Origin: Isurus oxyrinchus
Lineage: Eukaryota
Direction: 5' to 3'
DNA length: 64,000 bases
Assembly: GCA_026770705.1 (NCBI GenBank)
Contig: JANJGN010000032.1
Location: 16,554,001-16,618,000, forward strand
A program made the translations under genes and the position numbers. A model generated the notes under the pieces. It was given only the letters and a program-made list of their open reading frames with translations. It was not told where the DNA came from and made no database searches. Positions 12,501 to 60,136 of the stretch are shown here, piece by piece; position 1 is the stretch's first letter; each line of letters starts with the position of its first letter.

Positions 12501-15500
12501 GGGGTTATTTTCCTTGGGGTAGAGCAGATTGAGGGGAGACATGATTGAGGTGTATAAAATTGAGGGGCATAGATAGGGCAGACAGGAAAGAACTTCTCCC
12601 CTTGGTGGAGGGATCAATAACCAGGGGCATAGATTTAAGGTAAGGGGCAGGAGGTTTAGAGGGGATGTGAGGAAAATATTTTTCACCCAGAGGGTGGTGG
12701 GAATCTGGAACTCACTGCCTGAAAGGATGGTAGAGGCAGAAACCCTCAAAACATTTAAGAAGTATTTGGATGTGCACTTGCGATGCCATGGCGTATAAGG
12801 CTATGGGCCTCGTGCTGGAAAATGGGATTAGAATAGTTAGGTACTTGTTTGACTGGCACAGACTCGATAGGCTGAAGGGCCTTTTTCTGTGCTGTAGACC
12901 TCTATGACTCTATGAGAAAACCACCCATCCATCTAGTTGGTTCATCTAGCTTGCCCATCCAATTAATCCCATTCTTCCTGATCAGACAGCTGTAGACACA
13001 TGTCCATATATCTGTGTTTGGAAGTCAAGAGCTTGTCTAGTTTTTTTCGAAACCCCTCTAAGTTTTCTTTCAAATAGATGGAACAAGCTTCAGTCTAGGT
13101 GATGGATTACTATTTTGTGAAAGAAATTTTGTCTTGAGTTTCCTTTTACTGTGTTGTTTTTTCCTTCCTCATGAATTCTACATACTCCTGGCTGCAGTTC
13201 TATATATATCAAAAACTTATTTTTCCAACTGGGTGCTGAAACTGTTGTGTTCAGAAAAGAGAAATCTCTCTTGATAAAACTGCCTCCCGAATGAGAACTT
13301 TAGACCAAACCTTATGTAGAATGAGTCATGTCAGTGTTGAAATTAATCTTAAATTTATCCTTGCATATTCTAGAAGCTTACATAGGATTGCATTGGAAAT
13401 ACGTCACAGAAACAGGCCACTTGGTCCAACCAGTCCATGCCGGCATTTATGCTCCACTCGAGCCTCCTCCCATCTTTTCTCAAAAAAAATCTATCATCAT
13501 AACCCTCTGTTGCCTTTTCCCTCTTATGCTGATAGCTCACCTCTATATTCTTTGCTTGATCGTGAATTCCACTTTCTCATCACTCTCTGGGTAAAGAAGT
13601 TTCTTCTGAATTCCCTATTGAATTTCTTGGTGACTGTCTCATATTGATGGCCTTTAGTTATCTTCCCCAAGAGGAAACATTCTGTCTGTATCTGTCAAAA
13701 ATACCTATCTATCAAATCCTTTCATAATTTTAAATGCCTCTGAGCTCACCCCTCCAGCCACCTTTTTTCAGGAGAAAAGAGATCCAGACTATCAATCCTT
13801 TCCTGATACGTATACCCACACATTTCTGGTATCATCCTTGTAAACCTTCTCTGTACCCTCTCCATATCCTTTTTCCAATATGACGACCAGAATTGAACAC
13901 AGTTAATATTGTAAAATTGGTTGCAAAACTAACTAACTAGGTTTAACTAGTCCTACTGAAGTTAGTGTTAATTTAGTGTGTGCCAGTTAGGTAGTTTATT
14001 ATAAAATTGTACTGACTTTCTAACCATTACATTTCAGTTCTCTCAAACTTTTTTTTAACAAATATTTTAGGTCCGTAAACAGCAAAAGGAGCATACAAAC
14101 CTTATGACAGAATATCGGAATAAACAGCAACAAAAATGTTCTTTATCTCCCTCAGGGATGATGGCGACAACCTCATCCCAGAATCCAAGAGTAATGCCCA
14201 AACTTTCAACCCCCATGTTATCAGCAGCATTAGCCCAGCAAGGAGGGGCAATCCTTGGATCTCAAGCAATAGCTCAGCAACCAAATACACTAATAGGACA
14301 TACAGGAAATATAAGAATGCCACAGATCGGGGCTACAGTACCACTGCAACAGGGACCAACATTCTTGACCTCAGCTGTGTCCCAGCAACAGGAATATCCC
14401 TCTGCCTCAGGAACTGTATCTTCTGCTCCCTCAACCAGTTTTTTTTCTGGAAATTCTGCTGCTCAAACACTTACAAATGAAAGCAGACTCCTACAGGAGA
14501 GACAACTTCAACTGCAGCAAAGAATGCAACTTATTCAACAGCAAGGACTTGTAGGGCCATCTCAGCAGCAAAGTATCATGGGAAAGTTACAGCAACAAGG
14601 TATCATTGGACAGCTTCAGCCAACGACTCAGCAAAATATTGTTGGTAACAAACCAACACAGCAGGGTGTCATGGGTCAACAGCAGCAAGGCTTCATTGGA
14701 CAACAGCAAGGGATTGTTGTCCAGTCACAACACCAACCTGCTCAGCAGCAGCAGCAAGTTCTTGCAGGGCAGCAGCTACCCCAGCAGCATAGCAACATGG
14801 GTCAGACACAGCAGCAGCCAGCAACACAACACCAGCAAAGTCTGGCACCTCAACAGCAACACTTAAGGCTGATGAGTCAACAGCAAGGCCTCCTTGGGCA
14901 TCAGCAGCCCCACCAACAGGGTCTTACAAGTCATCCAAAGCCTCCACGGCCCCAGCAAGGTCTTATGGCGCAGCAGTTGGCGCATCAGCAAAGTCTTGCA
15001 GTTCAACAGCAAGTCCTCACTTCTCAACAGCAGCAACAAAGTCTGGTTTTACAGCAACAGGCATCCAGTGTTCCTTTGCAGCAGCAAGGGCTCATAGGGC
15101 ATCAACAAGGGGTTGTTTCACAGAGTCAGCAGTTGGGAACAATGACACCCCTGCAACAGCATCATCTTCAAGCTGTGCCAGGACAACTCCACCCACAAAG
15201 TGTTATCAGACAGAACAACATCCTGAGACTTTCCACACCCTTCCAAGGCCAGCAGCAAAGCACAATGGGACATCAAACTAGAATGCAAAGTATAATGAGG
15301 CAGCAATCTCAGGATGTTTTGGGCCAGCACCTAGCGACGCAAAGCATTATGGGGCAGCAGACTCCACTGCAAGTCATCAGGCACCAACTGCCAGGCATAA
15401 TAGGACAGGGACAGCAACAGCATCAGCCTCAGAGCATGATGGGGCAGGGCATGAGGCAGCAGCATCCACCCCAGGTCTCAGTGGAGCAAGGGCAGCAATC

Positions 15501-18500
15501 CCAGCCTCAGGGAACAATGGACCAGGGACAGCAGCATCAGCCCCAGAGCACAATTGGACAAGGACAAGAACATCAGCCCCATGCTACGATGGGAATCGGA
15601 CAGCAGCCCCAGGGAACAATGGGGCAGCAGCAGCAGCAACAACCCTCTCAAGCCCAGGGCATGATGGGACAGCAGTCACAGCCACCAAGCCAGCCCCAGA
15701 GCACGGTGGGACAGCAAATACCACCCCAGCCCCAGAGCACAGTGGAGCAAGCAATTGGACAGCAGATAACCCAAGGCCCAATGGGACAGCAGCCCCCTCA
15801 GGGTCCATTGGGGCAGGGAATGGGACAGCAGCAGTCATCTCAAGGCACAGTGGGGATGGGACAGCAATCCCAGCCTCAAGGCACAGTGGGGATGGGACAG
15901 CAATCCCAGCCTCAAGGCACAGTGGGGATGGGACAGCAACCTCAGCCTCAGGGCACAGTGGGGATGGGACAGCAACCTCAGCCTCAAGGCACAGTGGGGA
16001 TAGGACAGCAACAGCAGTCATCCCAGGGCCCAGTGGGGATGGGACAGCAACAGCAGTCGTCCCAAGGCCCAGTGGGGATGGGACAGCAACAGCAATCGTC
16101 CCAAGGCCCAGTGGGGATGGGACAGCAACAGCAGTCATCCCAAGGCCCAGTGGGGATGGGACAGCAACAGCAGACATCCCAGGGCCCAGTGGGGATGGGA
16201 CAGCAACAGCAGTCACCCCAGAGTACAGTGGGAATGGGACAGCAACAGCAGTCACCCCAGGGCCCAGTGGGAATGGGACAGCAACAGCAGTCACCCCAGA
16301 GTACAGTGGGAATGGGACAACAGCAGCCATCCCAGGGCGCAGTGGGAATGGGACAGCAACAGCAGTCACCCCAGAGTACAGTGGGAATGGGACAACAGCA
16401 GCCGCAGCCTCAGGGCACAGTGGGGATTGGGCAGCAACCCCAGTCTCAGAACTTGGTAGGTGTAGGACAGCAGCAACCCCAGCCTCGGGGCACAGTGGGG
16501 ATAGGACAACCACAGCCTCAGGGCACAGTGGGGATAGGACAACCTCAGCCACAGGGTGCAGTGGGGATAGGACAACCCCAGTCTCGGGGCTTGATAGGAG
16601 TGGGACAGCCCCAGCCTCAGGGCACAGTGGGAATGGGACAGCAATCCCAGCCTCAGGGCCTGATGGGGCAGGTAAAGCAACAGCAGCAGCCTCCAGGTTT
16701 GATTGGGATGAGGCAAGGACAGCAGCAGCTGTTACAGGGTTTGATGGGGCAGTGGCAGCTGCAGCCTCCGGGTATGGTTAGGCAGGGACAACCGCAAAGC
16801 CTAATGGGGCAGGGGCAGCTTGCACAGAACTTAATGGGCCAAGAGCAGGGACAGCAGCAGCCACGTCCACAGGGCATGTTGGGGCAAGGTCAGGGACAGC
16901 AACAATTGCAGAGCTTAATGGGACAGAGACAGTCTCCAGGTACAATGGGACAAGGGCAGCGGATGCAGAGCTTAGGTACAGTTGGTGGCCAGCAATCTCT
17001 GCAGGCTTCAGGTATGGTGGGGCAGGAGAAGGAGCAGGAGCAGCAACAGGAACAACCACCTACAGGCACAGTGAGGCAGGAGCAGCAGCAAAGCCAAATT
17101 GTAATGGAACAGGAGTCTTTGCTGCCTCCCCAGTGCATAATGGGGCAGGACCGTAACCAATTACCAACTCAGAATATGATGAGACAGCAGCAGCTGTCCA
17201 AAAGTGCAGCAGGACTGGGACAACCTCAGGGTATGATGTATCAGAATTTACAAACACGAGCAGTGACATCAGTACAACAACCAATGCAGCAAGGCGTTGC
17301 AGGACAGCAGCGACTTATGAATCAGCAGGGTCAGTTAATGAGACGTGTACAACAACAAGCTGTAACTGGTCTACAACAGAATAATGGTCTCAGTTTACAA
17401 GGGATGGTGCGAGTAGCAACGTCTCAGCAGCATGGAACTGTGGGAGATCCAAGACAGGGAGTGCAAAACATTATGACTTCACAGTCATTTCAGCAGCAGC
17501 ATGCGGGGCTGCGTTCAGTTCATATAACTGGTCAACAGATTGGGTTAGGCCATCTTCGTCCAGGCATGGTATATGTTCAGCAGGTTAAAGCCGAACATAG
17601 CGGGAAGCCACAAGAGATGGCCCATCTGATTCAAAACAAACGAGCAAGGCAGAATGTGGGGTCAGGAAGTGAATTGGTGTCTGGCCAAGCTCATTGTAAT
17701 CGTTCACAAATGCCACATCCAGAATTAAGTAAAACAAATTTGGGAGATGTGTCACTACAAGGTGAAACTTTGGAAACAATAATGCAGTCACAACCAGAAT
17801 TGCTTAAAGATCATGAACCCAAAGAAATTAGTGCTTGCGTGACAGACTCTATAGCAATTATACCTCAAAAGATACCTGATTCAAAGTCTGATACATTGGT
17901 AATGAAACCACATGGGACTGTTGGAAAAGCAAGCTCGGTTACTGAGTTGCAAGCCAGAATTAATGTTGAGATCCGTGAACAAAGTGACTTGAAGAAACCT
18001 TGTACATTTGACTTCCCAATATCTCCGCCAAGTCATGCAACAAAGGAGGAATGCACTGGTTTGAGATCAGAATCATCACTGTTGAATCAGACCAATGGAC
18101 AAGAGGAATGTGCACAGAAAGTCACAGGAAGGCAGGATAGCTGTTCTAAATTACAGGAAGGTGCTGCTAAAGACACCAACACAGCAGGTGCAGGTCACTT
18201 AGTGAAACAGGAAAGTATTGATGCAGTTCGCTGTGGATTTCCAGAAGGAACTGTAAAGCATGAGTCAAATACTGACTCTGTCAATGCCTTGAATGCAGGG
18301 GGTCATTCTTTTCTTGCTCCAAGATCTGAAGCTGGACAGCTGCTTCTCCAGAAACTTTTACGCACTAAGAACTTGCAGCTTGTGGCACAACGCTCTGGAG
18401 ATGGAACGCACTTAACTGTAAAAGGCCACATTGAAAGCAAAGCTGTGATGATAGATCGAAAACTACAAGGTGCAACCGGAAATTCAGAGGTTAGTTAAAA

Positions 18501-33500: not shown

Positions 33501-36500
33501 AGCTAGAAAAAGGTGGAGAGGTGGTTCTGTTAATTAATGGTGGTATCAGCACAATATAGAGGGATGACCTAAGTTCAGGAACCAGGATGTAGAAGCAGTT
33601 TGGGTAGAAATGGGAAATGATAAAGGCAAGAAGTCACTTGTGGGAGTGCTGTATAGACCCCCTAGCAGTAACCACACGGTAGGGTGGGGTATAAAGGAAG
33701 AAATAATGGGAGCTTGTCAGAAAAGTACAGTGATAATCATGGGGGTTTTTAATCTATATGTAGACTGGAAAAATTAGATGGGCCATGGTAGCCTAGTTGA
33801 GGAATTCATAATTTCTTAGAACAGCACGTTCTGGTGCCAACCAGAGAGCAGGCTGTACTAGACCTGGTATTGTGCGACACAATAGGATTAATTCATGACC
33901 CTAGCTAGCAGTGATCATAATATAATTGAATTTTACATTCAGTTTGAGGGAGAGAAGAGCGGATCTAAAAAAACAGCAAAGAATAACTATAAGATTAATA
34001 AGGAGGGAAAAATTTGAGTACAAGAGAAAGCTAGCTAGAAATATAAAGACATAGTAATAGCTTCTATAGTTATTTAAATAAGAAAAGAATTAACAAAGTA
34101 AACATTGGTCATATAGAAACTGAGCCTGGGGAATTAATAATGGAAAATAAAGAGATGGCAGATGAATTGAACAAGTATTTTGCATAGGCCTTCACTATAG
34201 AGGATACAAGTAATGTCCCAGAAATAGCTGTAAATCAGGAAATGGAAGAAAGGGAGGAACTCAAAATTACAATCACCAGGGCTGTGGTACTGAGCAAATT
34301 GTTGGAGCTGCGAGCTGACAAGTCCCCAGGTCCTGATAGGCTTAATCTGAGGGTGTTGAAAGAAGTGGCTAGTGAGATAGTTGATGCGTTGGTTTTCAAA
34401 ATTCCCTAGATTAGATTCTATTAGATTGGAAAATAGCAAATATAACTCCTTTATTCAAAAAGGGAGGGAGTCAGAAAACAGGAAAATACAGGCCAGTTAG
34501 CTTAACATGGGAACAATATTAGAAGCTATTATTAAAGATGTTATAGCAGGGCACTTAGATGAATTCAAGGTAATCAGTTAGAGTCCAACATAATTTTGTG
34601 AGAGGGTAATCATGTTTAACCAATTTATTGGAATTCTTTGAAGCAGTATGGTGCTGTGGATAAAGGGGAGCCAGTGGATATACTGTAGTTAGATTTATGG
34701 AAGTCATTTGATAAGGTGCCACATAAAGGTTATTGTGGAAAATAAAAGCTCGTGGTGTAGCGGGTAATGTATTGGCATGGATAAAAGATTGGCTAACTAA
34801 CAGGAAACAGAAGGCATAAATGGGTCATTTTCTGGTTGGCAGGATATAACAAGTAATGTGCCACAGGGATCAGCACTGGGGCCTTAACTTTTTGCAATTT
34901 ATATAAATGATATGGATGAAGGGACCAATGGCATGGTTACTAAATTTGCTGTTGACACAAAGATAGTTAGGAAAGTAAGTTGTGAAGAGGACATAAGGAT
35001 TGGATAACAAATGGATATCGATAGGTTAAGTGAGTAGACAAAGATCTGGCAAACGGAGTACAATGTGAGAAAATGCGAAATTGTCCATTTAGGCAATGCA
35101 TACTATCTAAATAGTGAGAGATTGCAGAACTCAGAGATGCAGAGGGACCTGGGTGTTCTAGTGCATGAATCACAAAAGGTTAGAATGCAGGTACAGCAAG
35201 TAATTAGGAAAGCTGATAAAATGTTATTGTTTATTGCGAGGGGAATTGAATACAAAAGTAGGGAGGTTATGCTTCAGCTGTGCAGGGCATTGGTGAGACC
35301 ACATCTGGAGTACTGTGTACAGTGTTGGTCTCCTTATTTAAGAAGGGTGTAAATGTGTTGAAAGCAGTTCAGAGGAGGTTTACTAGACTAATACTTGTAG
35401 TGGATGGATTGTCTTATGAGGAAAGGTTGGCAAACTAGGCTTGTTGCTGGAGCTTAGAAGAGCAAGAGGTGATTTGATTGAAACAAAATCCTGAGAGGTC
35501 TTGACAGGGTGGATCTTCCTCTTGTGGGAGAATCTAGAACTGGGGGTTACTGTTTAAAAATGAGGGGTTGCCCATTTAAGATGGAGATGATGAGAATTTC
35601 TTTCTCTGAGGGTCATGAGTCTTTGGAACACCCTTTCTCAAAAGGTGGTGGAAGCAGAGTCTTTGAATATTTTCAAGGCAGAGGTAGATAGATTCTTGAT
35701 AAGGGGACGAAAGGTTATTGCGGGTAGGTGGGAATGTGGAGTTGAGATTACAGTCAGATCAGCCATGATCTTATTGAATGGCAGAGCAGGCTCGAGGGGC
35801 CAAGTGGCCTACTCCTGCTCCTAATTTGTATGTTTGCATATAAATTCTGGAGAAAATAGACCTAATTTGCTCAGCCTCTCATCATAGGACAACCCCCCTC
35901 ATTCCAGGGACCAATTTAGTGAACCTTTGCTGTACCATCTCTAATGCAAGCATATCTTTTAAATGTGGAGACCAAAACTGCATATGGTACTCCAAATGTG
36001 GTCTCACCAAAACCCTGTACAATTCTAGCAAGTCTTCTTTATTCCTGTACTCCAATCCCCTTGCAATGAAAATCGTTATTCCTGTACTCCAATCCCCTTG
36101 CAATGAAAATCGTTATTCCTGTACTCCAATCCCCTTGCAGTGAAGACCTTTATTCTTGTACTCCAATCCCCTTGCAGTGAAAATCGTTATTCCTGTACTC
36201 CAATCCCCTTGCAATGAAAATCGTTATTCCTGTACTCCAGTCTCCTTGCAGCGAAGACCTTTATTCTTGTACTCCAATCCCCTTGCAATGAAAATCGTTA
36301 TTCCTGTACTCCAATCCCCTTTCAGTGAAGACCTTTATTCCTGTACTCCTATCGCCTTGCAATGAATATCGTTATTCCTGTACTCTAATCCCCTTGCAGT
36401 GAAGACCAACATGCCATTTGCCTTCCTAATTGGCCACACCATCATCACAATTCTCTAGTTGGAATAGTTGGTGGACATCTAGCCATGCAGGAAGCTTCAG

Positions 36501-42500: not shown

Positions 42501-45500
42501 GCAATGGAGGCTCTTGTGGACGAGGTCAAGAATTTTGAAAGCGTTGCATTGGGAAGTGGAGGTTGGCATGAATAGGGATGATTGGCAGTGGGACTTGATG
42601 TGCAGCAGGATGTGAGTGATGGAGTTTTGGATGATGCAATTTGTAAAGTATTTTTGATAGAGGAATTGATTGTATTTTGACTGTCATTTTAAAGAATATA
42701 TTGATAACTAATGTTTTTGTTTCAAAACCTTATAATGGTTGTTTTTGCTTTTTCTTTTCAGGAAACTGCCTCAGAGTGTCCAGTGAAGGAAAGAATTGTA
42801 GTGCATCATTATAGTAATAATATGTCGATCCTTGATGTTCACCAGCTTCCCATAATACAACCAGAGAACTCTCCACCCTCATCCCCAAGTGTATCATCAC
42901 CTGGGACTCCAGCAGAGTCAAGTAAGCCTGACCTACCAGTTGAGTCACCAAAGATTAAGCATTCTCTCGCACTGGACGAAAAGCAGTTTGAGGAACCACA
43001 GCCACAAATGAAGAGGTGGAGGGGAATACGTTGGAAACGTTTGGAATTTAAAGTCATATTTCACAAGGGGAAGTTTAAGCATGTATCTCAGCATGAAATT
43101 GAAGAACTCATTCAGAAACTGGGGACATCATTAAAACCAGACCCCATGCCCAAGGACACTAGGAGATGCTGTTTCTGTCATGAAGAAGGTGATGGAATAA
43201 CAGATGGACCTGCAAGACTCTTGAACCTTGACTTGGATTTGTGGGTCCACTTAAACTGTGCATTGTGGTCTTCTGAAGTGTACGAGACTCAGGCAGGAGC
43301 ACTAATAAATGTGGAAGTGGCTTTCCACCGAGGACTTACCACAAAGTGTGCTTTTTGTCAGAAGACTGGAGCAACTACTGGTTGCCATCGGGTCCGATGC
43401 CCAAACACCTATCATTTTGCTTGTGCTATCCGTGCCCGTTGTATGTTTTTTAAGGACAAGACTATGCTTTGCAGTCAACACAAACTGAAAGGAGCTAACG
43501 AACAGGAAATTAGGTGTTTTGCTGTTTACCGCCGTGTCTACATTCAGAGAGACGAGGTGAAGCAGATTGCTAGCATTGTACAGCGTGGCAAGCGCAGTCA
43601 CATGTTCAGGGTTGGTGGACTGATTTTCCACACCATTGGTCAGTTACTCCCCCATCAGATGCAGGAATTCCACAGTGTGACAGCTCTTTATCCAATTGGA
43701 TATGAAGCAACACGTATTTATTGGAGCATGCGATACACTAACAAACGTTGCTGCTACCACTGCACCATCAATGATACTAATGGGAAACCAGAGTTTGGCA
43801 TCCAGGTTATTGAGCAAGGACATGAGGATCTGATTGTTACTGATTGGACCCCACAAGGTAAGAGCAGTCTACAGTGGTCAGGATAAAGAATTTTTTTAAC
43901 TGAACAATACAATGATAGATTTTCCAACAACTTATAAGTTAGCGACATAAATCTTTGATTTCCTCACCTATCCTTCCCTCACGGCTAAAATTACCTGTAT
44001 AAAGTTACATCTCATTGTGGTTTTCTTGTGTATCTTGCCATGGCACTTCGAATGCATTATTTTGACTGCCACTTATTAGTTTTATTGTGTCATCCTGTGT
44101 AACCTTAGAATCGGGAGGCAGTGGTGTAGTGATATTATCACTGGACTGGTAATCCAGAGACCCAGGATAATGCTCTTGGGATTCAAGTTCAAATCCCACC
44201 ACAGCAGATGGTGGGATTTGAATTCAATAAAAAAGAAATCTGGAATTAAAAATCTAATGATGACCATGAAACCATTGCCGACTGTTTTAGGGAAGGAAAT
44301 CTGCTGCCCTTGCCTCGTCTGGCCTACATGTGACTCCAGATCTGCAATAATGTGGTTGACAAGGGCAATTAGGGATGGGCAATAAATTCTGGTCTTGCCA
44401 ACGACACATCTCGTGAACAAATTTAAAAAAAGTTCATGCTGTTGCTTTATTATTTATAATTGGATGGTTTTGTAATTCTCTATAATATCCCTAAATTTTT
44501 TATATGTTCTTAATTATATAATATAAATGGATTGCTTTTCAAAATGGTTAGTGCAGAATGAATGGTCCAAATGGTCATCTCCTGTGTTATGAGCTAATGT
44601 GCTGAGCTAATTATTGTTGTGTTAGTAACTTTAGTTCAATCGCCTCTGCATAGGAAACTAATAATTTCCATCATCACCATGCACAATCAGGTAATCTCTT
44701 CATGCATTTCCCTATGCTGTACCAGTTTTATTTTAGACTGCACTGTTAGTCAGTTCCTCATGCCATTGTCAGTATATTAGCAGAGCAAGTTGACATCATA
44801 ATTTATCAACTTTACTTTTGTTTGTCTTAAACTCAGACCTTGCTTGTTGACTAATTACTATTTCAGCAAAACTTTTTTCTATTATTTGCTCCTGTCAAAT
44901 TACCTAAGCCATCTTCCGATTAGCCTTATTAGTCAAATGTACCTTGGAGTACTCATCCTATTATTCAAAAGATCTTGGGCAAAATCATCCCAAGGCTTAA
45001 AGCAGCAGATGCACTTTCACCACCCTGAACAGGTTCGGGGAAATATTAGGCTTTTTGTCTTCATTGTATTTTGCTGGAACCTCCTTTTAAATGCAATTCC
45101 AAGGCAAAATGTTTAAACTATGGGAGAGGATATATGGTCCCTTATGGTACCAAGCTCTTAATGGCAGCGTGTTTCAGAGGCCCTCCACCGCCCCCCTCCC
45201 CCCCAACCCCGGATGTAGACAGCCTAAATGTGTGTAGTTAAGCAATATTAAAAACATGAAGATCATCATATCAAGGGCTTAAACAGTCTCCCCAATCCTT
45301 CATTGTGAATCTTTAGTAGCCTGGCGGAAAATCAGAAGAAACCTGCTCCAGTCAAAACAAATAGATTTGAGTGATTTGTGACCCTGGAATTCATACTTGT
45401 GACTTTGTGGACAACTTTGTGATGCATTTTGTGGATGATCCGTTCTCTGACACTCTGTTAGTACAACAGAACTTCATGCCCATCATTTCTCAGTACATTT

Positions 45501-51500: not shown

Positions 51501-54500
51501 ATGCATAAATATTTGAAAATGAAACATTTAAAAAGCTATAGGCAGGAAAATTGGACTAAGTGAAATCACCCCTTCAGAGAGATGACACAGGCAGATGGGT
51601 TCAGTGGTTGGATTCTATGATTGTACTGAGAGATACATTCGCTAACTCGAATTAATCCTAATAAATGTCACAATCTGGCTTGTGTCAGAGTGATACTATA
51701 TAATTCTTTAGGTGCAATGGTGAATGCTGTATTAGTGTATAAACTGTACATTGATGTATATGAGGATATGTTATAAGCATCATGTTAAGTACATACTAAA
51801 TATATTTGCTGTCATATATAAATAATTGTCAAATAACCTGTACTAGAGAATGCATGGTAGATTGCATGCTATCTGCTCGAACCATTCAACTTTCTGCAGC
51901 TCTCATCACCCTGTATCCCATCGAATGGCTGCATGATTGCCAGGGTCTTTCTTTGGGGTCATTTTGGTCCGCTTTTGGTTGTCCTACTGCTAATCTTCTG
52001 TGCCCCACTACTGTGTTTCCTGGTGTTGATGCTGGTTTCGATTTTAACTGATGTAAAGCTCTGAGAACCAAGGAAATAAAGTGAATATACTATTGTGAAT
52101 CAGAAATGCTGAAAATGAACAAGTCAGTCAGCTTCTCTAAAGAAGAAAGACAGGTTGATGTTTCTGTTGCAGGGGATTTCTTCAGGACTCCGGTCTTGCA
52201 TTGGAACATTGGCCTTCTTTATACAAAGGTGCTGACTGACTTGCGTATTTCTGACATTTTCTCTTTTTGTTCACAATATTTTAAAGCTACTACTGTTGTG
52301 CATACAGAGAATAGAGAAAACCAAAAAGGAGGAAGAATGTTGTTTAAAAAAAAAACTGGGACATGAAACATGACACATACAGAAGAAAAATAAAAATAGG
52401 AAAGATAGGAGAAAAACATAACATTAAACCACTCTTTGATTCCTAACTTAATAGGTATTTTGCAGCATCTCAATTTCCTTGGGTGTGAAGACCAGAATAT
52501 ACCATTACCTCAATCAAGATTTGCTGATGTTCCATAATCTCATGCTCTAGAAATATTTGAAAGAAAATTGGTTGTTAGTTGAGTTTAGGAGCAAGTGATA
52601 TATCATGATATTGGATTCTGTCTTCCTGCCACGGTACCTATAGAGCTGAAAGCAAAACTGTCAAAAGAAAGTTCTAGCTTGTTGCTTTTTGTATGGTTTG
52701 GTACCTGAAGGAAGAGCAATGACTTTTAATTCTAAACACAAGCATTTGTGTATTTTGTTTGTACATAGATTTGATTGGCAGTTCTCTGAGCATAAGGCAT
52801 GTATCAAAATCTCTGTTGCCTCGGTTGCTTTTGTCTTTCGAAAGTATGTTACCTTTTGCATAAAAAAGATGATTGTTGAAAGCCATGGGATATATAGACT
52901 GGAGAGATTCTGGTGGGATTTTCTGGCCCCTCACGGGCAGGACCTGCCGCAGGCGAAACGGTACCCCAGCCAGAAGTCCATTGACTTGCGGCGGGACCAG
53001 AAGATCCCGGCGGCAGGCAGGTGTGGAAAATCCCGCCCTCTGTCAGAAGCAAACCAACGCAGAGTGGTTAATGTTCATCAGGGACTTTTGCGTTCAATCC
53101 AGTTTAAATTATAATTAAGCAAAACAGATGTGAATGTTATTTTTTCTATTGTATCTGAGGAGTGTGTTCTGTAAAGCTATAGTATGTCATTTGTTATGAT
53201 CCTGGATCAGACCCCCAAATGTTTGGTACGATCCAGTTAGGGGCCATTAACTACTTGTTTTAAAATAGATAGTGTTTGAGATTCGAGACACTTTCTAAAA
53301 GAATAAAGCCACAAGATTCCACTGGTTCTGAGCAAACAAATATAAACTTTACTATCCAAGGTCAGAAAGATAAAACTATTTACAATATCTACACTAACAT
53401 TCAGGGTTAATATGAGGTTCATGTGAATTAATGGCCAAACTGGTCAAACACCACACTGCACTATAAATGGCAAGTGCGACCAAGACAGATTCCATGGATT
53501 TCTCAACAACTCACCCAGGCATCACTAAACAGTGTGAGTTAACCAATCTTGTTGAAACTCTGCCTCTCTCACGAGGGATTCCAGTCTTCACCTTCTAAGA
53601 TCTCACCTTGGAACTCTGTCCAAAAGTCGCTCCAATTCAGACGGCATAAATGACGGCCCATCTCACAAGGTTTCAATCTTATCTCCCAAGACTCTGTTTC
53701 CCTGGATTCTCAAGTCTGCATTCCAGCACCAACTCACAAGCACAACTTCAGCTATTCAGCCATGCTGAGCAGAACACCACTGCTCCAAAGGGTTACCTTT
53801 GATCCAGCGGCCCACAGCACAGAGTCTCCAACCTTCTGCTGCTTCCTTAGATCTTCAGGATTTCTCCCAAGTCCTTTTCAATTGCCAGGTCTTCTCCTGA
53901 GCCCTCTTCAACTTTTCTGCTTGGAACCTCTTTCTCTGCTCTTCTTAACTGGGACCTCTCCGTCCCCTCTCTCTTTGGGAAATCTCCCTGTCCCCTGCCT
54001 GGATCTCTTGTCCGATTATAGTGCCCCGCTCCTGATCACACGATCCAGTTTTTGCACCTTTTTTCCTTCACACAGGCGCACTGGGTGAGGACCGCCCTGA
54101 AGAGCTACAAATGCCGGATTGCACATGCGCCACCTGCTCCAGGAACGCACATGCGTGAAAGTCCCAAGTCATGCTGTGAATTGTCATTCCCGGCCCCCTG
54201 ATATGCTAAGTTTGGATCTCCTAACCCCTCCCCTTGGGCGAAAAGTCCTCACCATTGTGAAGCCTTTACAATGGCTATAAGTACTTAAGGCATTTGTTGG
54301 AAAGTTTATGATGTAATTGCATACTGTACAGATAAACTCTTCATTTTGTTCCACAATTACACATGTCATATTATAAAGGTACAAAGACTTGACCAAAACG
54401 AAAGCCAGTACATGTGACAAATAGGATTAGTAGGATTCAAACATCATGGAATTATCATAACTTGGAACCTGGGCCAGGATTTTCCCGTTGGCAAGTGGGG

Positions 54501-57500
54501 GTGGGGCCCGCTCGCCGACACACAAAATGCCGTGTGGTGACATCAGGCAGAACTCCTGACGTCACCGCGCCCCATTTAAATTTTCAGGTAGGCAGACGTT
54601 CAGCAAAATCAGCTGTGCGGCTGCCGACCTGTCAATGGCTAATTGAGGCCATTGACAGAGTCATTAAAGTAATTAATGGACCTGCCTGTCCAACCTTAAG
54701 GTTGGTGGGCAGGCCAGGAGCCCTGGCGGGCATTAAAAAAAGCATGAAACCTCAACCATGGGTGGGATGAGGTTTCACGTAGGTTTTTAAAAATTTAATT
54801 AAAGTGTTTTTAAAAGTTATGGACATGTCCCAACTCATGTGACAGTGTCACATGAGGGGACATGTCAGGGAATATTTTTTTCTCTATTTTTAATGTTTTC
54901 AATGTGCAACAGATCTCCCTGAGGCAGCACTTTGCCTCGGAGATGAGTGCGTTCATTCGTGTGCGTGCGCGAAAGAGCACACTCTTAGGCTTAGGGATTC
55001 CCTCCCACCCGCCCAGGGAGCACGCAGCACTTTTGTGCAGACATCACATTGGGTGGGCCTTATCTGGCCTGCCCACGTTAAATGGCGGCGCTCCCCCAAT
55101 CGGGGTACCGATCGGCATGCCTCCGCACGCCTGATCTTCAACTCTCCCCCCCCCAGCCCCCCAACAGGGGGAGAATTCTGCCCCTGGAGTTTTCTGACGC
55201 CCTTTCTTTAAACTCTGGACAGAACACCAACAACTAAATTGTTTTTTTTCCCATAATCTTTTCACAGTCAACCAAAGGTTGAAGATACATTTAAGTGTTC
55301 TTTAGAAACATCTTGACCAGCTTCTGTTTCTCTTTTGCGCCATGGGCTTTCAACCTTTCTGGTGTAACTGCAAACCAATAGTCTGGCAGTCTTCCCCGCT
55401 TCACATGATGCATATTAGTCAAGCTATGATACAAATGACTTTTGCGTAGGATTCTCAACTTTAATACAGAAGAACATAGGGTTTTTCTCACTCTTTCCCC
55501 TCTGTTGATGGAAACTTGCCTTCAGTGGATCCTTTAAGTTTGCTACAGAAAGCGTGTATGTCTGGTTGACAAAATTATCTTTTTCACTCACTTCCTCCAT
55601 GACAGATTTTGTCGTTTCATTGTTTTGATCCACACAAGATGAATACACCTGCACTGAGGGAGTTTTCCTCTCTTTGCTTAAATCATTTTCCATCTTATCC
55701 AAGAGATATGCTACAGCCTTCTGCACATGTTCATATCCTTCTTGCTGACGCTTGGAAAATGGAATCTTCATCTCCATTTCTTCCACAATTTCATCCAAAT
55801 ATTTGTTTAATCTCTTATTTTCCAACTCTTTTCCAAGTGTGTTAATCTTTCCATTCAGCTCAGCAACAGCTCTGGTGAATTCAGCTGTCTTTGTCTCAGA
55901 GTCATCTGCGGAACCCTTAAACAAGCTTAACAACTTCACATGGACATTCAGTTCATTTCGGAATCTTACCTCCATGAGCACTGACTGGTCCTTAGACTTT
56001 TTCAATTCTCCCATTAGATCCTCGATCTGCTTCTTCAAATTTTCGTTAGCTGCTTTTAAAGTCTGGATCTGCTCTCCCATACCGTACATCTCATCCTTTT
56101 TATTTTCCAGCTTGCATTGGGGTTCAAGCATTTCATTGCTCTTTTCATGACAAAGTTCCAACAGTTCATCAGTCTTGGGTTTTAATTTGGCACTCAATCA
56201 TTGATTCTTCAGCAATCCCTTTTTCTGTTCAAGGCATTTTTCACAATATTTAAGTTTTAATTGAAGACCTATCTTCTTTGAATTTGCTCCAAATATTTAT
56301 CATTTAGACATTTCAAGTCCTCATTCAAGTGTACTACTTCCTTTGACCAACACTCAAGTGTTCTCACCAGTTCTCGTTTGCATTAGCAAACCCCTCTTTT
56401 GTTGGAGCAAGTTGGTTCTCCATACTGATTAGCCTTTCCTGCATTTGCTCGTTATCAGCAATAAGTTTGTGTTTGGCCGCAGTAATTTTGGGAGGGTTTG
56501 GCAAGGTCAGCATGATCAAGCACTGCTGCAACACAGTTGTCACCATGTTACCATCTATGCTGGCCAAATCGTTACCCAATCTAAAATCTACCCCTTCAGT
56601 AGACAGATGGAGCATGTCCATGCGTTGTGCCTTTTTCAATGAAACAAAAGCTTGGGGGAGGGTGCAGCCATTCCCTGGTTCATCCCCCATGGTAATGCTG
56701 TGACCAATCAGAGTTGACCTGCCTGGTTTGAATTTGAACAAAAGCTTGGCAGTTAACTGTTCCCTGGTACATTCTCCATGGCAATGCCTCTACCAATCAG
56801 AGAGCACTTGCCAACCAATCAGCACCCTCTTCTCATGCAGTATAAATTGTTGTTCCCTTTACTATTGATATTCTTGCGAACTGTCCTGATGACTGCAAGA
56901 CAAAATACTTTGACAGCATGTCTGTCTTTTTCAGCATTACAGATTTAAACTGTTAATGCTTACGAGCTTGTCCCTGAAGCATAAGTACTGCAGTGTTAAC
57001 CACCTCATCATCTGAGGATCATTCTTCCGAAAAGCTAGAATAGACATTCATGACCTTCCAGATCAAAGCACTTTGCAAAATTAGAGTCCACGTGTCCTTT
57101 GGCCATTTTAACTTTGTAGCTGCCTTTAAAAACAGGATAAAATACCTCTCAACTCCACCTTCAGTGATTTTAGGCACTATGCGAAGACTCTTTGTAATAT
57201 CAAAGCTGAGTCAGACTCAATTCCTCATTTGAACTACTAGACTCTCTTTTCACTTTGCAACCTAAGCTTTTCTATCTCAAGCTGCTTCATTTGCAGTTGA
57301 ATTCTAGCTAACTCAAGCTGTGTTATACCTGTCAGGCTTTTCTTCTAGTTCCAAATGCCACGCTATTACCGCAATTATTTCTGCTTTCTTAGCCCTGCTT
57401 TTAACTTTAACTTCAACTTTTTTGATAATGTGATTAGCCTAGCCCTGGTTAATTGTTACAAATCACTCTTGGATAAATCTTCCCTCTCCAGAAAAGTCAT

Positions 57501-60136
57501 AGCAATTGACAAAGCCATTCTGCTTTTCAATCAGTATAGTAAAATTCACCATGGAAATCCTATCAACCTTAACCTCAGCCAGTACCAGCACTTGTATTTG
57601 CCTGTGGATTCGAATTCCCACAATAGCCCATAATTTGTGTTCCTGGACCATACCCCCAAATGTTTGGTACAATCCAGTTAGGGACCAGTAACTTTTTTAT
57701 TTAAGAGTTTGAGATTCAAGACACTTGCTAAGAGAATAAAGTCACAAGATTCCATGGGTTCTGAGCAAACAAAAATTAACTTTACTCTGCAGGGTTGGAA
57801 TGATGAAACAATTTATAATATCTATCTCCTACTCTAACATTCAGGGTTAATATGTGGTACATGTGTATTAACAGGCAAATTGTGGTCAAACACAACACAC
57901 TGAACAATAAATGGCAGATGTGACCAAGATAGATTCCACGGATTTCTCAACAACCCACCCAGACATCAGTAAACAGAGTCAACCAATCTTGTTGAAACTC
58001 TGTCTCTCTCGTGAAGGAATCCAGTCTTCAGCTTTGAAGATCTTGCCTTGGGATTCTCGCAAAAGTCGCTCCAACTCGGACAGCCTACCTTGCAGGGTTT
58101 CAACCTTGTCTCCTGAAACTCTGTTCCCCTGGATTCCCGAGTTTGCATTCAGGCATCAAATCACAAGCACTACTTCAGCTCTTCAGTCTGAGCAGAATAC
58201 CACTACTTCAAAAGGTTACCTTTGCCCCAATGACCTACAGCATGGAGTAACCAACGTCTCCCATTGGGACCTCTCCCTGCCCCCTGCTTAGGGCTCTCCT
58301 CCCATTACGGCACTGTGCTCCCGATCACGTAAAATTTTTTTCGCGCCTTTTTTGCTTCACGTAGGTGCACTGGGCCCGTTCTCACCCTGGACAACTACAA
58401 AGCGCTGGGGTTGCGTATGTGCTACCCACTCAGGGTCCGCGCATGCGCAGAACTCCCGGAGTATGCTGGGAGTTGTAGTTTCCGACCCCCTGGTGACGAT
58501 ATGGTAAGTTTGGATCTGTAACACATTGCATCTATTCAATTCATTTACTGTTTGGTGGTTTATGGCCTCAGCCTTAGGTTGAGATCTTAGGAAGGGATTA
58601 GTGCAATAGCTTTGTTTTGTTAATTTAGCAGGTGGTTACTTAGATCTCAAAGCAAGGATATGGGACTTGCCCATGAGAGTGATCCAAGATGTACATGATA
58701 GCTAAAATAAAAAGTAAGATGGTTAGAAAAGATGCAAAAATATAACTGGGAGTGAGGATCACCTATGGAGTGGTCTGAGGCATCGAACCCAAGAAAAATA
58801 TTTAGAGTAACAATCCTTAAAATGTAATATTCCTTTTGTCCAAAAGTGTACAAATGTCACAGTAAATAATACTTGCCACTGCAAAAGATGTATCGGTGAC
58901 ATAGTGAAAAGGGTGCAATTCTGGCTCAATCCTGACCGACCCTCCTTGGCTGTACTCTTGTTGAGTTTTGTCTTTGACAGTATAGCTCCCTCAGCTCTCA
59001 GAAATGCACAGCTTTTAATTGAAGCATGGAGTTTCATCAATACTGAAAATTTTGGGAACTCTATAGTTTTATGAAAGGGGGATGTACAAGGAGTGGCAAG
59101 AGAAGTACAAGATCAGAAGCTAAGTTTGTTTTTGTTTTTTCTAGAATCGAGGTGTTTATATGTTTCGGATTAATAATGAACATGTGATTGATGCTACTTT
59201 AACCGGAGGCCCAGCCAGGTAAGTGACCATTTCTGTTGTGATGGCATCAACAAGAATGATTTGAGAATTGGATTGAAATAATTTTATATGGTAATAATTA
59301 ATGTTTATGGTAATTGACAAGCAAGGGTTTTGAATCTTTTGTAACACCTTGTAAGGATGTGAAACTTTTATCCCCTTGGTAGTCGCTGTTCCCTTTCCTT
59401 GCTGCCCCAATCTATACAGCCTTTGTGTCCAAGAGAACAGTGAGAAATCTACTTTCAGGCCATCAACAGTCTCGCCATAGGGGTGACCTTGAATGGAAAT
59501 GACATTATTTGAATAGTAGTGACATTGTGATTTATTTCATGTTCTTCATTTTACAGTTTGTTGTATTCTGAAAGTCCATACTTGACTACATTTTTTTCCT
59601 CCTCTTGTATTTTTGTACTGTTAAGTTGTTCTTTTTCTCTTTTTTTAAAAAAATACACTTAGAATCTTTCTCTCCTGTGCAGATATATCAATCATTCCTG
59701 TGCCCCCAACTGTGTGGCAGAGGTTGTGACCTTTGACAAGGAGGACAAAATAATCATTATCTCAAGCAGACGAATTCCAAAAGGAGAGGAGGTGAGTGGA
59801 AAACAGAGAAAACTAAAAGTTATTACATACTTGGCTGAGGAAATAATGTGGATAACTTAAATGAAAAGGTTTACAGCTGAACATTGCACAGTCTAAAATC
59901 GTCTATGTAAAGTTACGGAAAATTTATTTTACTCAGCTGGGAAGGCTTAACTACTACAGAATCAAAAATATATCAGTTGATGTCTGAATGTTGACTGTTC
60001 ATTGAACATTTTCTGTCTTAATAATGTTTTTTTCTTTCTTTAGCTGACTTATGACTATAAGTTTGATTTTGAAGACGATCAGCACAAGATTCCATGTCAT
60101 TGTGGAGCTCTCAACTGCAGAAAGTGGATGAACTAA
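6433..60136 (+). CDS. KMT2D: Histone-lysine N-methyltransferase 2D, 3' part (21 coding exons; the 5' exons lie upstream of the window)
   Basis: All exons have AG/GT boundaries with matching phases, 7997 coding nt in total. KMT2D-diagnostic peptides: [95 protein letters not shown]. The protein ends [13 protein letters not shown]. Confidence 0.96.
6803..6890 (+). CDS. KMT2D: KMT2D exon ([12 protein letters not shown]...GNSQ)
   Basis: tttag acceptor, gtactt donor, phase 2 to 0; [11 protein letters not shown] matches KMT2D. Confidence 0.92.
8716..8782 (+). CDS. KMT2D: KMT2D exon ([22 protein letters not shown])
   Basis: ttccag(cag) acceptor, gtaagt donor; RPNPPTF motif; alternative start at 8719. 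Confidence 0.9.
8920..10065 (-). mobile_element. CR1 ORF2 fragment (endonuclease and linker)
   Basis: Minus-strand ORFs with LAEVDW...[19 protein letters not shown]. Confidence 0.8.
11382..11614 (+). CDS. KMT2D: KMT2D exon, coiled coil ([11 protein letters not shown]...QKQLDQ)
   Basis: ttctag acceptor, gtaggg donor; nearly identical to the KMT2D coiled-coil segment. Confidence 0.97.
11740..12915 (+). mobile_element. 5'-truncated CR1 LINE (RT to 3' tail)
   Basis: [25 protein letters not shown]; tail ctctatgactctatga. Confidence 0.93.
13400..13905 (-). mobile_element. CR1 3' fragment
   Basis: Reverse-strand CR1 3' end; same subfamily as 22285-22772. Confidence 0.75.
14071..18489 (+). CDS. 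KMT2D: KMT2D giant Gln/Gly-rich exon (4419 nt; [12 protein letters not shown]...GNSE)
   Basis: ttttag acceptor, gttagt donor; open over 1473 codons; conserved ends [11 protein letters not shown] and LLLQKLLR (LxxLL). Confidence 0.95.
15841..16653 (+). repeat. Coding tandem repeat, about 22 units of 33-39 bp (QG[T/P]VG[M/I]GQQ..)
   Basis: Repeated caaggc(a/c)cagtggggatgggacagcaa units read directly from the sequence. Confidence 0.95.
19589..19741 (+). CDS. KMT2D: KMT2D exon ([10 protein letters not shown]...LMKQLQQ)
   Basis: tttacaag acceptor (alternative tttcag giving a start at 19604), gtacca donor; basic NLS-like stretch; phase 0 to 0. Confidence 0.85.
19905..21165 (+). mobile_element. 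CR1 3' fragment interrupted by a second LINE
   Basis: [12 protein letters not shown] before about 20000; the CR1 3' sequence resumes at about 20915. Confidence 0.75.
20016..20910 (+). mobile_element. 5'-truncated non-LTR retrotransposon (CR1/L2 group), RT C-terminus and tail
   Basis: [34 protein letters not shown]; tail gcaataaatgctggc..cacatcccatgaacgaa. Confidence 0.85.
21656..21820 (+). CDS. KMT2D: KMT2D exon ([10 protein letters not shown]...DYYSQLLYK)
   Basis: ccctag acceptor, gtaaat donor; LSLLPL.EP and DYYSQLL conserved. Confidence 0.95.
22285..22772 (-). mobile_element. CR1 3' fragment
   Basis: Colinear with 13400-13905. Confidence 0.75.
23343..23484 (+). CDS. KMT2D: KMT2D exon ([24 protein letters not shown]...)
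   Basis: tttag(cag) acceptor, gtatga donor; invariant Pro-rich motif. Confidence 0.95.
23695..25625 (+). mobile_element. CR1 RT fragment with deletions and a MITE insertion
   Basis: [45 protein letters not shown]. Confidence 0.9.
24561..25211. mobile_element. MITE of the same family, inserted in a CR1 RT region
   Basis: Same TIRs and internal sequence as 54471-55183; CR1 sequence resumes on both sides. Confidence 0.8.
25640..25922 (-). mobile_element. tRNA-derived SINE
   Basis: Minus strand TGGCGCAGTGG (A box) and GGTTCAAGTCC (B box). Confidence 0.65.
26040..26575 (+). mobile_element. Old CR1 3' fragment
   Basis: ctggagtattgtgttcaattc..., ttatgaggaaaggttg, ggggctgaatggcctattcctg. Confidence 0.7.
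27756..30450 (-). mobile_element. Penelope-like element: RT and GIY-YIG remnant with an inverted duplicate of the 3' end
   Basis: Minus strand: [29 protein letters not shown] and GYIDD. Plus strand from about 29657: [19 protein letters not shown]. Termini are inverted; flanking direct repeat tcttggaaca at 27746-27755 and 30451-30460. Confidence 0.9.
30663..30744 (+). CDS. KMT2D: KMT2D exon (DLLTTELK...[12 protein letters not shown])
   Basis: cacag acceptor, weak gttttt donor; LPTPPHNQ conserved; phases fit both neighbours. Confidence 0.85.
31226..31545 (+). mobile_element. tRNA-derived SINE with LINE-derived tail
   Basis: Head tgacgtagtggtaatatcactgga; tail gggcaattaggg..caataaatgctggccttgccagc..cacatcccatg. 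Confidence 0.8.
31688..31866 (+). CDS. KMT2D: KMT2D exon (…[11 protein letters not shown]…[11 protein letters not shown])
   Basis: aacag(tag) acceptor, gttggt donor; conserved peptide. Confidence 0.93.
32826..33205 (-). mobile_element. CR1 3' fragment
   Basis: Reverse CR1 3' UTR (ggagtagaccat..atcatgactgatct..caactccactttcctgcc). Confidence 0.75.
33206..35835 (+). mobile_element. CR1 ORF2, long degenerate copy (endonuclease to RT to 3' UTR)
   Basis: [26 protein letters not shown] motifs, [14 protein letters not shown]. Confidence 0.92.
35846..36432 (-). mobile_element. CR1 RT fragment containing a minisatellite
   Basis: [18 protein letters not shown] on the minus strand. Confidence 0.85.
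36039..36407. repeat. Minisatellite, 10 x 37 bp
   Basis: ttattcctgtactccaatccccttgcaatgaaaatcg units start at 36039, 36076, 36113 and so on to 36372. Confidence 0.95.
37758..37900 (+). CDS. KMT2D: KMT2D exon (VFPDTKP...SGAAAK)
   Basis: ccttag acceptor, gtaaat donor; VFPDTKP and GKG..V.V.L.VS.AAAK conserved. Confidence 0.92.
37972..38182. mobile_element. Palindromic Penelope-terminus remnant
   Basis: Inverted arms; flanking repeat tccatcttaact at 37960-37971 and 38183-38194. Confidence 0.85.
38421..38562 (+). CDS. KMT2D: KMT2D exon (DINRMM...MKIPGSYEV...)
   Basis: ttatag acceptor, gtatgt donor; LL.MKIP.SYEV conserved. Confidence 0.9.
38711..38858. mobile_element. Penelope-terminus remnant
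   Basis: aaatgctggaaatactcag...cagcatctg...gttaacgtttcagg followed by a partial inverted copy. Confidence 0.7.
39808..39948. mobile_element. Possible degenerate MITE
   Basis: Imperfect inverted ends caactttccctctaag ... cttcgaaggaacattg. Confidence 0.35.
40176..40309 (+). CDS. KMT2D: KMT2D exon (…[15 protein letters not shown]…)
   Basis: cttag acceptor, gtatgt donor; W.KQ.D..LPG.TLK conserved. Confidence 0.9.
40455..42005 (+). mobile_element. Relatively young 5'-truncated CR1 LINE
   Basis: Open 286-aa RT C-terminal frame (KFADDTK...[13 protein letters not shown]); [13 protein letters not shown]; ttatg-type tail. Confidence 0.95.
42190..42640 (-). mobile_element. Old L2-like LINE 3' fragment
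   Basis: Minus frame [12 protein letters not shown]...; purine-rich plus strand like 46290-47000. Confidence 0.5.
42762..43857 (+). CDS. KMT2D: KMT2D exon encoding extended PHD (ePHD) and FYRN
   Basis: ttttcag acceptor, gtaaga donor; [36 protein letters not shown]; FRVGGL; [13 protein letters not shown]. Confidence 0.98.
44112..44431 (+). mobile_element. tRNA-derived SINE, same family as 31226
   Basis: A box tggtgtagtg, B box agttcaaatcc; same body and tail. Confidence 0.85.
45839..45975 (+). CDS. KMT2D: KMT2D exon, FYRC
   Basis: ctcag acceptor, gtaaga donor; VWNRILEP...[17 protein letters not shown]. Confidence 0.97.
46290..47000 (-). mobile_element. L2-like LINE 3' fragment
   Basis: Minus [31 protein letters not shown]. 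Confidence 0.75.
47934..48064 (+). CDS. KMT2D: KMT2D exon, end of FYRC and WIN (WDR5-binding) motif GCARSE
   Basis: ctccag acceptor, gtaggt donor; [10 protein letters not shown]...[11 protein letters not shown]. Confidence 0.97.
48933..49101 (+). CDS. KMT2D: KMT2D exon, pre-SET to start of SET
   Basis: taacag acceptor, gtgagt donor; [33 protein letters not shown]. Confidence 0.97.
50644..50788 (-). mobile_element. Penelope-terminus remnant, same subfamily as 424-641
   Basis: Nearly identical to 460-560; flanking repeat ttatgatagaa at 50633-50643 and 50789-50799. Confidence 0.8.
50848..50964 (+). CDS. KMT2D: KMT2D exon, SET-N
   Basis: ccatag acceptor, gtatgg donor; [21 protein letters not shown]. 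Confidence 0.97.
52100..52272. mobile_element. Old, degenerate palindromic Penelope-terminus remnant
   Basis: aaatgctgaaaatg...agtcagtcagc mirrored by gctgactgact...catttt. Confidence 0.5.
52911..53038. mobile_element. Short GC-rich MITE
   Basis: TIR-like ends tggtgggattttc ... gaaaatcccgccc. Confidence 0.6.
53192..54226 (-). repeat. 3' LTR
   Basis: Colinear with 57633-58523 (e.g. cccccaaatgtttggtac, ctaacattcagggttaatatg, aaccaatcttgttgaaactctg, taagtttggatct); adjacent minus-strand PPT AAGGGGAGGGG at about 54225-54235. Confidence 0.9.
54471..55183. mobile_element. MITE with GGGC-starting TIRs (possibly PIF/Harbinger-derived), nested in the LTR element
   Basis: GGGCCAGGATTTTCCC ... GGGAGAATTCTGCCC; colinear with 24561-25211. 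Confidence 0.8.
55688..56546 (-). pseudogene. TPR: Processed, internally deleted fragment of nucleoprotein TPR (N-terminal coiled coil)
   Basis: Peptides [66 protein letters not shown] and [15 protein letters not shown] follow the vertebrate TPR N-terminus in order; no introns; frameshifts and a stop upstream of the 55424-56197 ORF. Confidence 0.9.
56590..56940 (+). mobile_element. Penelope-like element 3' fragment nested between gag and the TPR cargo
   Basis: Repeated CCAATCAG boxes, TATAAA and a decayed hammerhead CTGATGA..CAAAA..GTC at 56886-56922. Confidence 0.6.
56941..57518 (-). pseudogene. Degenerate, 3'-truncated gag (Gmr1-like, SCAN-related capsid N-terminal part)
   Basis: Manual translation with stops and frameshifts: [10 protein letters not shown]...[18 protein letters not shown]...[41 protein letters not shown]...SSDDEVV..AVL, then AYELVPEA in an inverted segment. 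Confidence 0.85.
57604..57630 (-). promoter_or_regulatory. Primer-binding site (tRNA-Leu/Ser-like)
   Basis: Minus strand TGGGCTATTGTGGGAATTCGAATCCAC starts TGG about 2 nt from the LTR; the plus strand resembles a tRNA T-arm plus CCA. Confidence 0.7.
57633..58523 (-). repeat. 5' LTR
   Basis: Second copy, about 130 bp shorter through an internal gap; ends TAACA; the PBS follows directly on the minus strand. Confidence 0.9.
59145..59218 (+). CDS. KMT2D: KMT2D exon, SET-I
   Basis: ttctag acceptor, gtaagt donor; [24 protein letters not shown]. Confidence 0.97.
59683..59791 (+). CDS. KMT2D: KMT2D exon, SET-C (RYINHSC)
   Basis: gtgcag acceptor, gtgagt donor; [10 protein letters not shown]...KGEE. 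Confidence 0.97.
60044..60136 (+). CDS. KMT2D: KMT2D last coding exon, post-SET and stop
   Basis: ctttag acceptor; [30 protein letters not shown] then TAA. Confidence 0.97.

Follow-up and report, generated by a model that had tools for sequence, protein, structure and literature searches.

Transducing retroviruses of the gag-onc type are helper-dependent and carry host coding sequence as an in-frame fusion with gag. In LTR-mediated retrocopies (Tan et al. 2016, PMC5131818, where maize Bs1 and human FAM8A1 are cited), spliced host mRNA replaces part of an element ORF with short shared repeats at the junctions, and the available portions of that paper also describe multi-gene chimeras and further rounds as a non-autonomous element. 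The circRNA-derived pseudogenes, such as that of mouse circRFWD2 (Dong et al. 2016, PMC4897178), are present in many copies, have a non-colinear exon junction, adjoin LTR sequence and lack poly(A); the excerpts of that paper at hand call the mechanism mysterious and place LTR enrichment in the flanks only. Gmr1-like Ty3/Gypsy elements combine a SCAN-type capsid with a PR-IN-RT-RH order, according to the accessible text of bioRxiv 10.1101/2025.03.03.638093, and the arrangement is also referenced to PMC3424704. The N-terminus of TPR appears, in the consulted part of PMC3258255, as a partner in TPR-kinase fusion oncogenes.

The window analyzed here, by which we mean the whole stretch of 64,000 nucleotides (G000:C32:16554001-16618000), holds a decayed, non-autonomous Gmr1-like Gypsy LTR element in which pol is replaced by spliced TPR. 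As in the retrocopies, intronless host sequence stands in for part of the element ORF, the element-host junctions show 5-10 nt of shared sequence, sequences of more than one host gene are joined, and the family has spread non-autonomously, with a target-site duplication at the window copy. Unlike the retrocopies in the available portions of PMC5131818, the shark family is old, vertebrate, present at 95 or more TPR-bearing loci and accompanied by surviving intermediates; its gag-protease fusion stays in frame through eight junctions, and one of its cargos apparently derives from a circular RNA. It shares with the pseudogenes of PMC4897178 the four properties listed above, the non-colinear junction lying at exact splice sites. 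Unlike what the excerpts of that paper describe, the shark circle is placed within pol of a defined element; the bases at which it was entered and left coincide after one turn and are marked by repeats. Whereas Gmr1-like elements carry pol, the window copy and its siblings are without it and hold two host cargos. Like gag-onc retroviruses, the element is helper-dependent, with host coding sequence in frame with protease; unlike these and the TPR-kinase fusions, it shows no env and no kinase, and TPR is the C-terminal partner. Our literature searches, which covered few subscription journals, found no paper on a shark TPR/NCOA7 element family. The route from circRNA to genomic pseudogene, left open in the excerpts of PMC4897178, receives a sequence-level answer from this family, namely template switching within an LTR element.

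The window element and its parent

The plus strand of the window carries a KMT2-type gene, probably KMT2D, with a PHD and FYRN exon at 42708-43886 and an open SET-like exon at 59145-59216. The element (53192-58523) sits antisense within an intron of this gene (Table 1). Its LTRs end in TG..CA (TGTTA..TAACA), with the 4-bp target duplication CATT on both sides, and are 79.7% identical to one another across 868 aligned bases. Of pol, only the protease end and the RNase H end remain, the motif of the former being one that we take to be protease; about 850 bp of gag/protease present in siblings are gone from this copy. The element was once mobile and is now dead and old.

Table 1. Features of the element and its target site in the window, listed along the minus strand
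Feature	Position	Strand	Basis or remark
Target-site duplication CATT, outer side of 5' LTR	58524..58527		Sequence
5' LTR, 889 bp, starts TGTTA	57635..58523	-	Comparison with 3' LTR
Broken gag remnant, SCAN-like capsid region	56960..57630	-	Siblings
Younger short repeat, private insertion	56650..56945 (approximate boundaries)		Absent from siblings there, recurs in flanks elsewhere
Protease region end (presumed)	56565..56640	-	Position between zinc knuckle and integrase
Spliced TPR cargo	55694..56564	-	5' UTR end, ATG at 56546, host codons 1 to about 459
NCOA7-like cargo, exon D 3' part	55520..55693	-	G000:C6:76785651-76786408; in frame with TPR
NCOA7-like cargo, exon E	55355..55519	-	C6:76788557-76788725; 77.6% identity
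NCOA7-like cargo, exon A 5' part (upstream exon, back-splice order)	55251..55354	-	C6:76753792-76754060
Parent RNase H last codons and stop (pol end)	55208..55250	-	Pol-bearing relatives
Second younger repeat inserted in element	54470..55185 (approximate boundaries)		Recurs at other loci
Purine-rich tract adjoining 3' LTR	54225..54237	-	Direct reading
3' LTR, 1033 bp, last bases TAACA	53192..54224	-	Sequence
Target-site duplication CATT, outer side of 3' LTR	53188..53191		Sequence

The two inserted repeats are younger and dispersed, and both were found in the flanks of many other loci. Elsewhere in the window, a 1475-aa open exon of the KMT2-type gene (14071-18498) contains a glutamine-rich tandem array (15816-16659) of 39-bp and 33-bp units in about 18 and 5 copies, and a 37-bp tandem repeat of about 10 copies lies at 36039-36403.

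Pol-bearing relatives reveal the parent. A search with the protease-integrase spacer of one sub-group (group B, below) returned 30 loci; 24 carry TPR, and five of the remaining six continue into integrase. Pfam matches place Integrase_H2C2 and rve in L147 and RVT_1 and RT_RNaseH further 3' in L148, so that the relatives show the order protease, integrase, RT, RNase H. A sibling frame (L086) matches P0005, which carries PF02023, with 43% identity over 83%, pointing to a SCAN-type capsid; a direct SCAN search with L086 or the window gag remnant alone gave no match. Behind the RNase H stop, L150 has a non-coding stretch and then the LTR, with no env seen. Judged from these sequences, the parent appears to have had the Gmr1-like arrangement, with integrase ahead of RT and RNase H. 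We note that the RQD(E) point of the protease-integrase spacer was used for two independent in-frame joins, to NCOA7 exon D in L158 (G000:C19:6298537-6301781) and to TPR in group B; this point may be a hot spot of recombination or reflect a constraint from a cleavage site.

The TPR cargo and its shortening

Host TPR exons 1-14 lie on G000:C16:74249790-74275492, with every intron GT-AG and CDS junctions at 154, 259, 333, 430, 534, 699, 792, 873, 961, 1102, 1197 and 1395. The window cargo is intronless across these junctions, about 82% identical to host TPR, and extends from the 5' UTR to near CDS base 1378-1387. It lacks 201 nt (162+39) near its 5' end, 30 nt at host CDS 500, 96 nt at 913, 186 nt at 1066 and 6 nt before a TGA. 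The first-pass annotation of this DNA had named three of these gaps, about 10 aa after LQLKL, about 30 aa after RAVAEL and about 60 aa between ELEN and KRLNK, as frame-preserving deletions of an ancestral element. All three (30, 96 and 186 nt) are indeed multiples of three, and the second (32 aa, at TRAV) and third (62 aa, SPTAAA included) stand as described. The 30-nt gap is real but private, occurring in one of 44 spanning copies, and therefore reflects decay and not ancestral design; the 6-nt gap is likewise out as an ancestral change (one of 49 copies), the single copy being that of the window in both cases. Three family-wide in-frame gaps, of 162, 39 and 51 nt, had been overlooked. The LEN microhomology proposed for the 186-nt gap is really EN/EN (3 nt exact, 7/8), and the strongest microhomology, 13 nt at the 96-nt gap, had gone unremarked.

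Neither the host gene nor its splicing accounts for the gaps. Host and whale shark TPR both contain the missing segments, and no gap has both ends on exon junctions, which excludes exon skipping or a host isoform as the source. The annotated decay of the window copy is borne out: the TGA before 56197 and the 5' frameshifts are present, and 17 of 24 host CpGs read TG/CA (690/1026 across all copies). A stop-to-stop frame of 257 aa does exist, but it is a chimera with about 168 aa of TPR, and its last ~88 aa belong to an NCOA7-like second cargo that had been overlooked. Its first 170 aa had been read as continuous coiled coil; a crude heptad scan instead finds changes of register in the ORF and likewise in host TPR. 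The family-wide gaps of 54, 13, 17, 32 and 62 aa equal 5, 6, 3, 4 and 6 mod 7, so that, with gap lengths out of register and register changes in the scan, heptad-preserving deletions are unsupported. A PDB search with the TPR start and a search with the protease/TPR frame found nothing.

A genome search with cargo DNA gave 1719 first-look candidates, and the best 40, which were scored, are all distinct loci. All searches together yield at least 95 distinct TPR-bearing loci and at least 136 with TPR or tail; overlaps between searches put family size at 129-272, a lower bound because each search favors well-kept copies. Gap counts rest on 54 copies aligned to the host CDS, leaving out L102 as a duplicate of L101 on another contig; seven of the 54, with <70% cover, were dropped from substitution and tree work, and CpG-prone sites (50/735) from the substitution tallies. 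L101 and L102 (C90:2.02 Mb, C21:1.97 Mb) are near-identical, one on a chromosome and one on a small contig, and are probably assembly haplotype duplicates, as probably are the near-identical pair at C5:154.07 Mb and C426.

Sibling copies share the 186-nt gap in 53 of 53 spanning cases and the 96-nt gap in 45 of 51 (each exact in 37), so the claim of shared deletions holds for these two and not for the 30-nt gap. The 201-nt loss is modal in 15/27 copies and the 51-nt gap in 11/16. In group A, 162+39 nt are gone and the protease end is joined to the TPR UTR. The parent sequence extends about 50 codons further in group B, where TPR is joined near codon 56 and the 51 nt are absent. Searching with host sequence absent from most copies brought up group C, in which six spanning copies retain the 96-nt segment and L100 and L101 keep nearly the whole TPR piece, their only family-wide gaps being 39 and 186 nt and 51 and 186 nt, respectively. 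Since these less-deleted copies survive, shortening was stepwise, and recombination or recurrence at the 96-nt repeat accompanied it. Host codons ~104-304 have no family-wide gap. The tree of copies is star-shaped, its terminal branches measuring about 0.14. When copies were picked by gag, 5 of 20 carried TPR, and none had more than 174 bases of pol in 8 kb. The earlier idea of an ancestral element with a shortened TPR is thus confirmed as progressive in-frame shortening, but the product would have been a Gag-protease-TPR-NCOA7 fusion and not a free mini-TPR.

The NCOA7-like cargo and its back-splice junction

The tail was identified only by genome searches, through its longer form in the pol-bearing relative L147. 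The 500 nt behind TPR gave no protein match, no Pfam match and Atlas scores under 0.8, and two repeat proteins matched by the tail were spurious. Its host gene on C6 has a LysM exon and TLD exons about 20 kb downstream; the TLD exons score 69.9 bits against NCOA7 versus 54.4 against an OXR-type entry, with the reverse for the paralogue on C5. TPR joins exon D at its LEND motif, the modal junction being in frame (23/41 copies).

The element carries exon D, exon E and then exon A, which in the host lies 35 kb upstream. This order of E followed by A recurs in 39 copies, and the join connects the exon E donor to the exon A acceptor, at the exact bases and in frame, in L147 and L159. In normal transcripts E joins a different exon, with only the linear join in 4/4 contig sets, which drop rare forms and come from runs only guessed to be RNA. 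A family-wide 58-nt loss lies directly past the back-splice junction in the exon A piece.

From integrase to the RNase H end, the TPR-less relative L159 carries A[153-269], B, C, part of C2, D[399-758] and E, followed by A up to base 162. Its cargo enters and exits at the same ATGGA of exon A (A153 start, A162 end), which leaves start and end no more than 10 nt apart on a loop measuring at least 1427 nt; an internal deletion is present. L167 has the same 5' junction, and L147 and L158 are 5'-shortened forms; the full-turn reading thus draws on one complete copy (L159) and one 5' junction (L167). As far as sequence can speak to a copying event, we regard this as direct evidence that the reverse transcriptase of an LTR element copied a circRNA, apparently through one full turn in L159. 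The family would then be a rare record of circular RNAs written back into a genome, and it predicts the same NCOA7-like circle in shark RNA.

Several minor observations concern these loci. L158 and L159 (G000:C19:6.300 and 6.318 Mb) are two NCOA7-only forms 18 kb apart on the same strand. L147:4422-5260 (G000:C195) reads RT, RNase H end, NCOA7 piece and RNase H end again, and is a recombinant of a deleted parent and a cargo-bearing form. An 18-nt stretch of exon D and a 6-nt stretch of exon A, both multiples of three, occur in L147, L159 and siblings, and the host is without both; they are either post-capture host-lineage deletions or element insertions. L160:237-274 is a short partial duplicate of the exon E start, about 580 bp upstream in the intron.

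Proposed history, frame keeping and rival readings

We propose, with a probability of about 0.7, that a Gmr1-like element captured an NCOA7-like circRNA and then a TPR mRNA by repeat-guided template switching, trimmed the TPR piece, multiplied in a burst and decayed. In a putative initial step, reverse transcriptase would leave element RNA at the RNase H end and enter the NCOA7-like circular RNA within exon A, cross the back-splice junction, complete one round and return to the element in the integrase region; the exit within a few bases of the entry would follow if RNase H had destroyed the template there. The 5' part of a TPR mRNA then took the place of what was left of pol and of the first part of the NCOA7 piece, keeping the gag-protease frame (as measured at the protease-TPR joint). 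Slips of reverse transcriptase between short direct repeats next shortened TPR, by 186 nt in all copies, then by 96 nt, with 39/162 or 51 nt lost in particular sub-groups, which recombination reshuffled. The resulting helper-dependent family multiplied briefly and rapidly, reached well over 100 sites and then decayed neutrally. Surviving copies attest these three steps at the sequence level, and a dated vertebrate series of capture, second capture and stepwise trimming is preserved. Set against the first-pass annotation, the deletion story is weaker than was held, and the double capture with its single-turn circle is stronger.

Whether selection held the frame open is a separate question. The protease-ATG spacing is exactly 18 nt in 16 of 22 copies, the group-B junction is in frame in 6 of 10, and the reading frame is kept at each of the eight family-wide junctions that precede the last ~55 codons; private indels have lengths of 3n in 39 of 188 cases. 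The 58-nt loss, the ninth junction, shifts the frame near the C-terminus, within those last ~55 codons, and is present in 37/37 TPR-type copies in which both of its sides can be read, with a net loss of 52-53 nt in 28. A rough chance null, with per-junction odds set by hand from repeat data, gives 0.09 for at least eight of nine junctions in frame and 0.018 for the first eight all in frame. Rare substitutions look neutral (N:S 1363:400, 94 stops), whereas element-derived shared substitutions stand at 20:14 with no stop, against a reference ratio of 3.6:1 (p=0.011, 34 shared sites). When all copies are compared with the host, N:S is 4:28, and 38 shared synonymous differences compare with 28 expected per lineage (p about 0.04); this signal is mostly host-lineage change, and a long stem under strong purifying selection is rejected. 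Shared changes in the NCOA7 piece (27:13) carry no synonymous bias. Because the tree is star-like, there was little time for selection and there are few shared sites to test. We put at about even odds that, during the family's active period, mild selection kept the Gag-protease-TPR frame open, the plainest role being a coiled coil tolerated as harmless bulk or perhaps aiding fusion-protein oligomerization and particle entry.

The same captures could also have run without selection, with TPR and NCOA7 as passive stuffer, the shorter RNA copied faster and the frames kept open by in-frame repeats, which we think quite possible, if somewhat short of an even chance. Exact direct repeats of 13, 9, 7, 3 and 3 nt flank the gaps; the group-B junction has one of 10 nt, the UTR junction one of 5 nt and the 58-nt loss one of 8 nt, and the direct repeats of host TPR are themselves in frame in 8/9 cases at >=9 nt and 28/42 at >=7 nt (45-89% by length). 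Since the gaps thus sit on mostly in-frame repeats, selection for a mini-TPR, which the first-pass annotation had favored, is only suggestive: the shared changes do lean synonymous, but much of the frame keeping is expected from repeat-guided template switching, and in-frame deletions in a coiled-coil cargo are weak evidence of selection unless set against such a null. The family-wide 58-nt frameshift, the heptad register that was not kept, the chance value of 0.09 and the many gag-bearing copies that lost the cargo or never had any also fit passive carriage. It fits less well with a UTR junction that is in frame yet has no coding bias, with the confinement of the sole out-of-frame family-wide loss to the C-terminal end, with the shared N:S ratio, and with 289 codons in which family-wide stops occur only at CpG hot spots and one CAA site. 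In an unlikely and more elaborate alternative, the TPR piece would be a selected decoy coiled coil that pairs with host TPR, is unable to anchor and loosens the nuclear-basket hold on unspliced element RNA, by analogy with the restriction of export of unspliced CTE-bearing retroviral RNA by TPR reported in the consulted part of PMC3258255. That part also assigns pore anchoring to L458 and M489 (human L458 would lie close to where the cargo ends, at about codon 459), and the family-wide integrity of host codons ~104-304 is consistent with a decoy; yet it describes N-terminal fragments as mostly cytosolic and a phenotype that is rescued, not blocked, and selection is itself only suggestive. It is correspondingly improbable that an exact circRNA turn into pol, followed by TPR capture and a selected Gag-protease-TPR decoy, would have made an anti-restriction gene in a non-viral vertebrate retroelement. 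Had the fusion been under selection, the capture of TPR would suggest that the nuclear basket hinders vertebrate LTR elements.

The two-capture history by template switching also has to be weighed against other templates and other hosts. A linear template could have given the E-A junction through trans-splicing, a jump of reverse transcriptase at splice-site-like ends or an ancestral exon-block duplication; the exon ends share AG/G, where a jump could land, and other routes to non-colinear junctions are mentioned in the excerpts of PMC4897178. We assign this a low probability, as both ends are exact splice sites, in frame, and as a start and end within 10 nt on so long a loop are not predicted by a linear template. 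Of the 78 candidates from a search for a second exon A, moreover, 40 were scored, and among these the host locus gave one match only, and no exon A copy was found within 10 kb behind exon D. Horizontal transfer of the family, after TPR capture in another shark lineage, could explain the excess of shared synonymous differences from host TPR and the misfit at codon 292, where most copies agree with whale shark and the host with chimaera. It nonetheless seems very unlikely. Compared with whale shark and chimaera, the copies share the host-derived residues 13, 63 and 159 and are without 238, 249 and 255, which places the capture midway on the host line, after the whale shark split, and each of the two independent cargos matches a gene of this genome.
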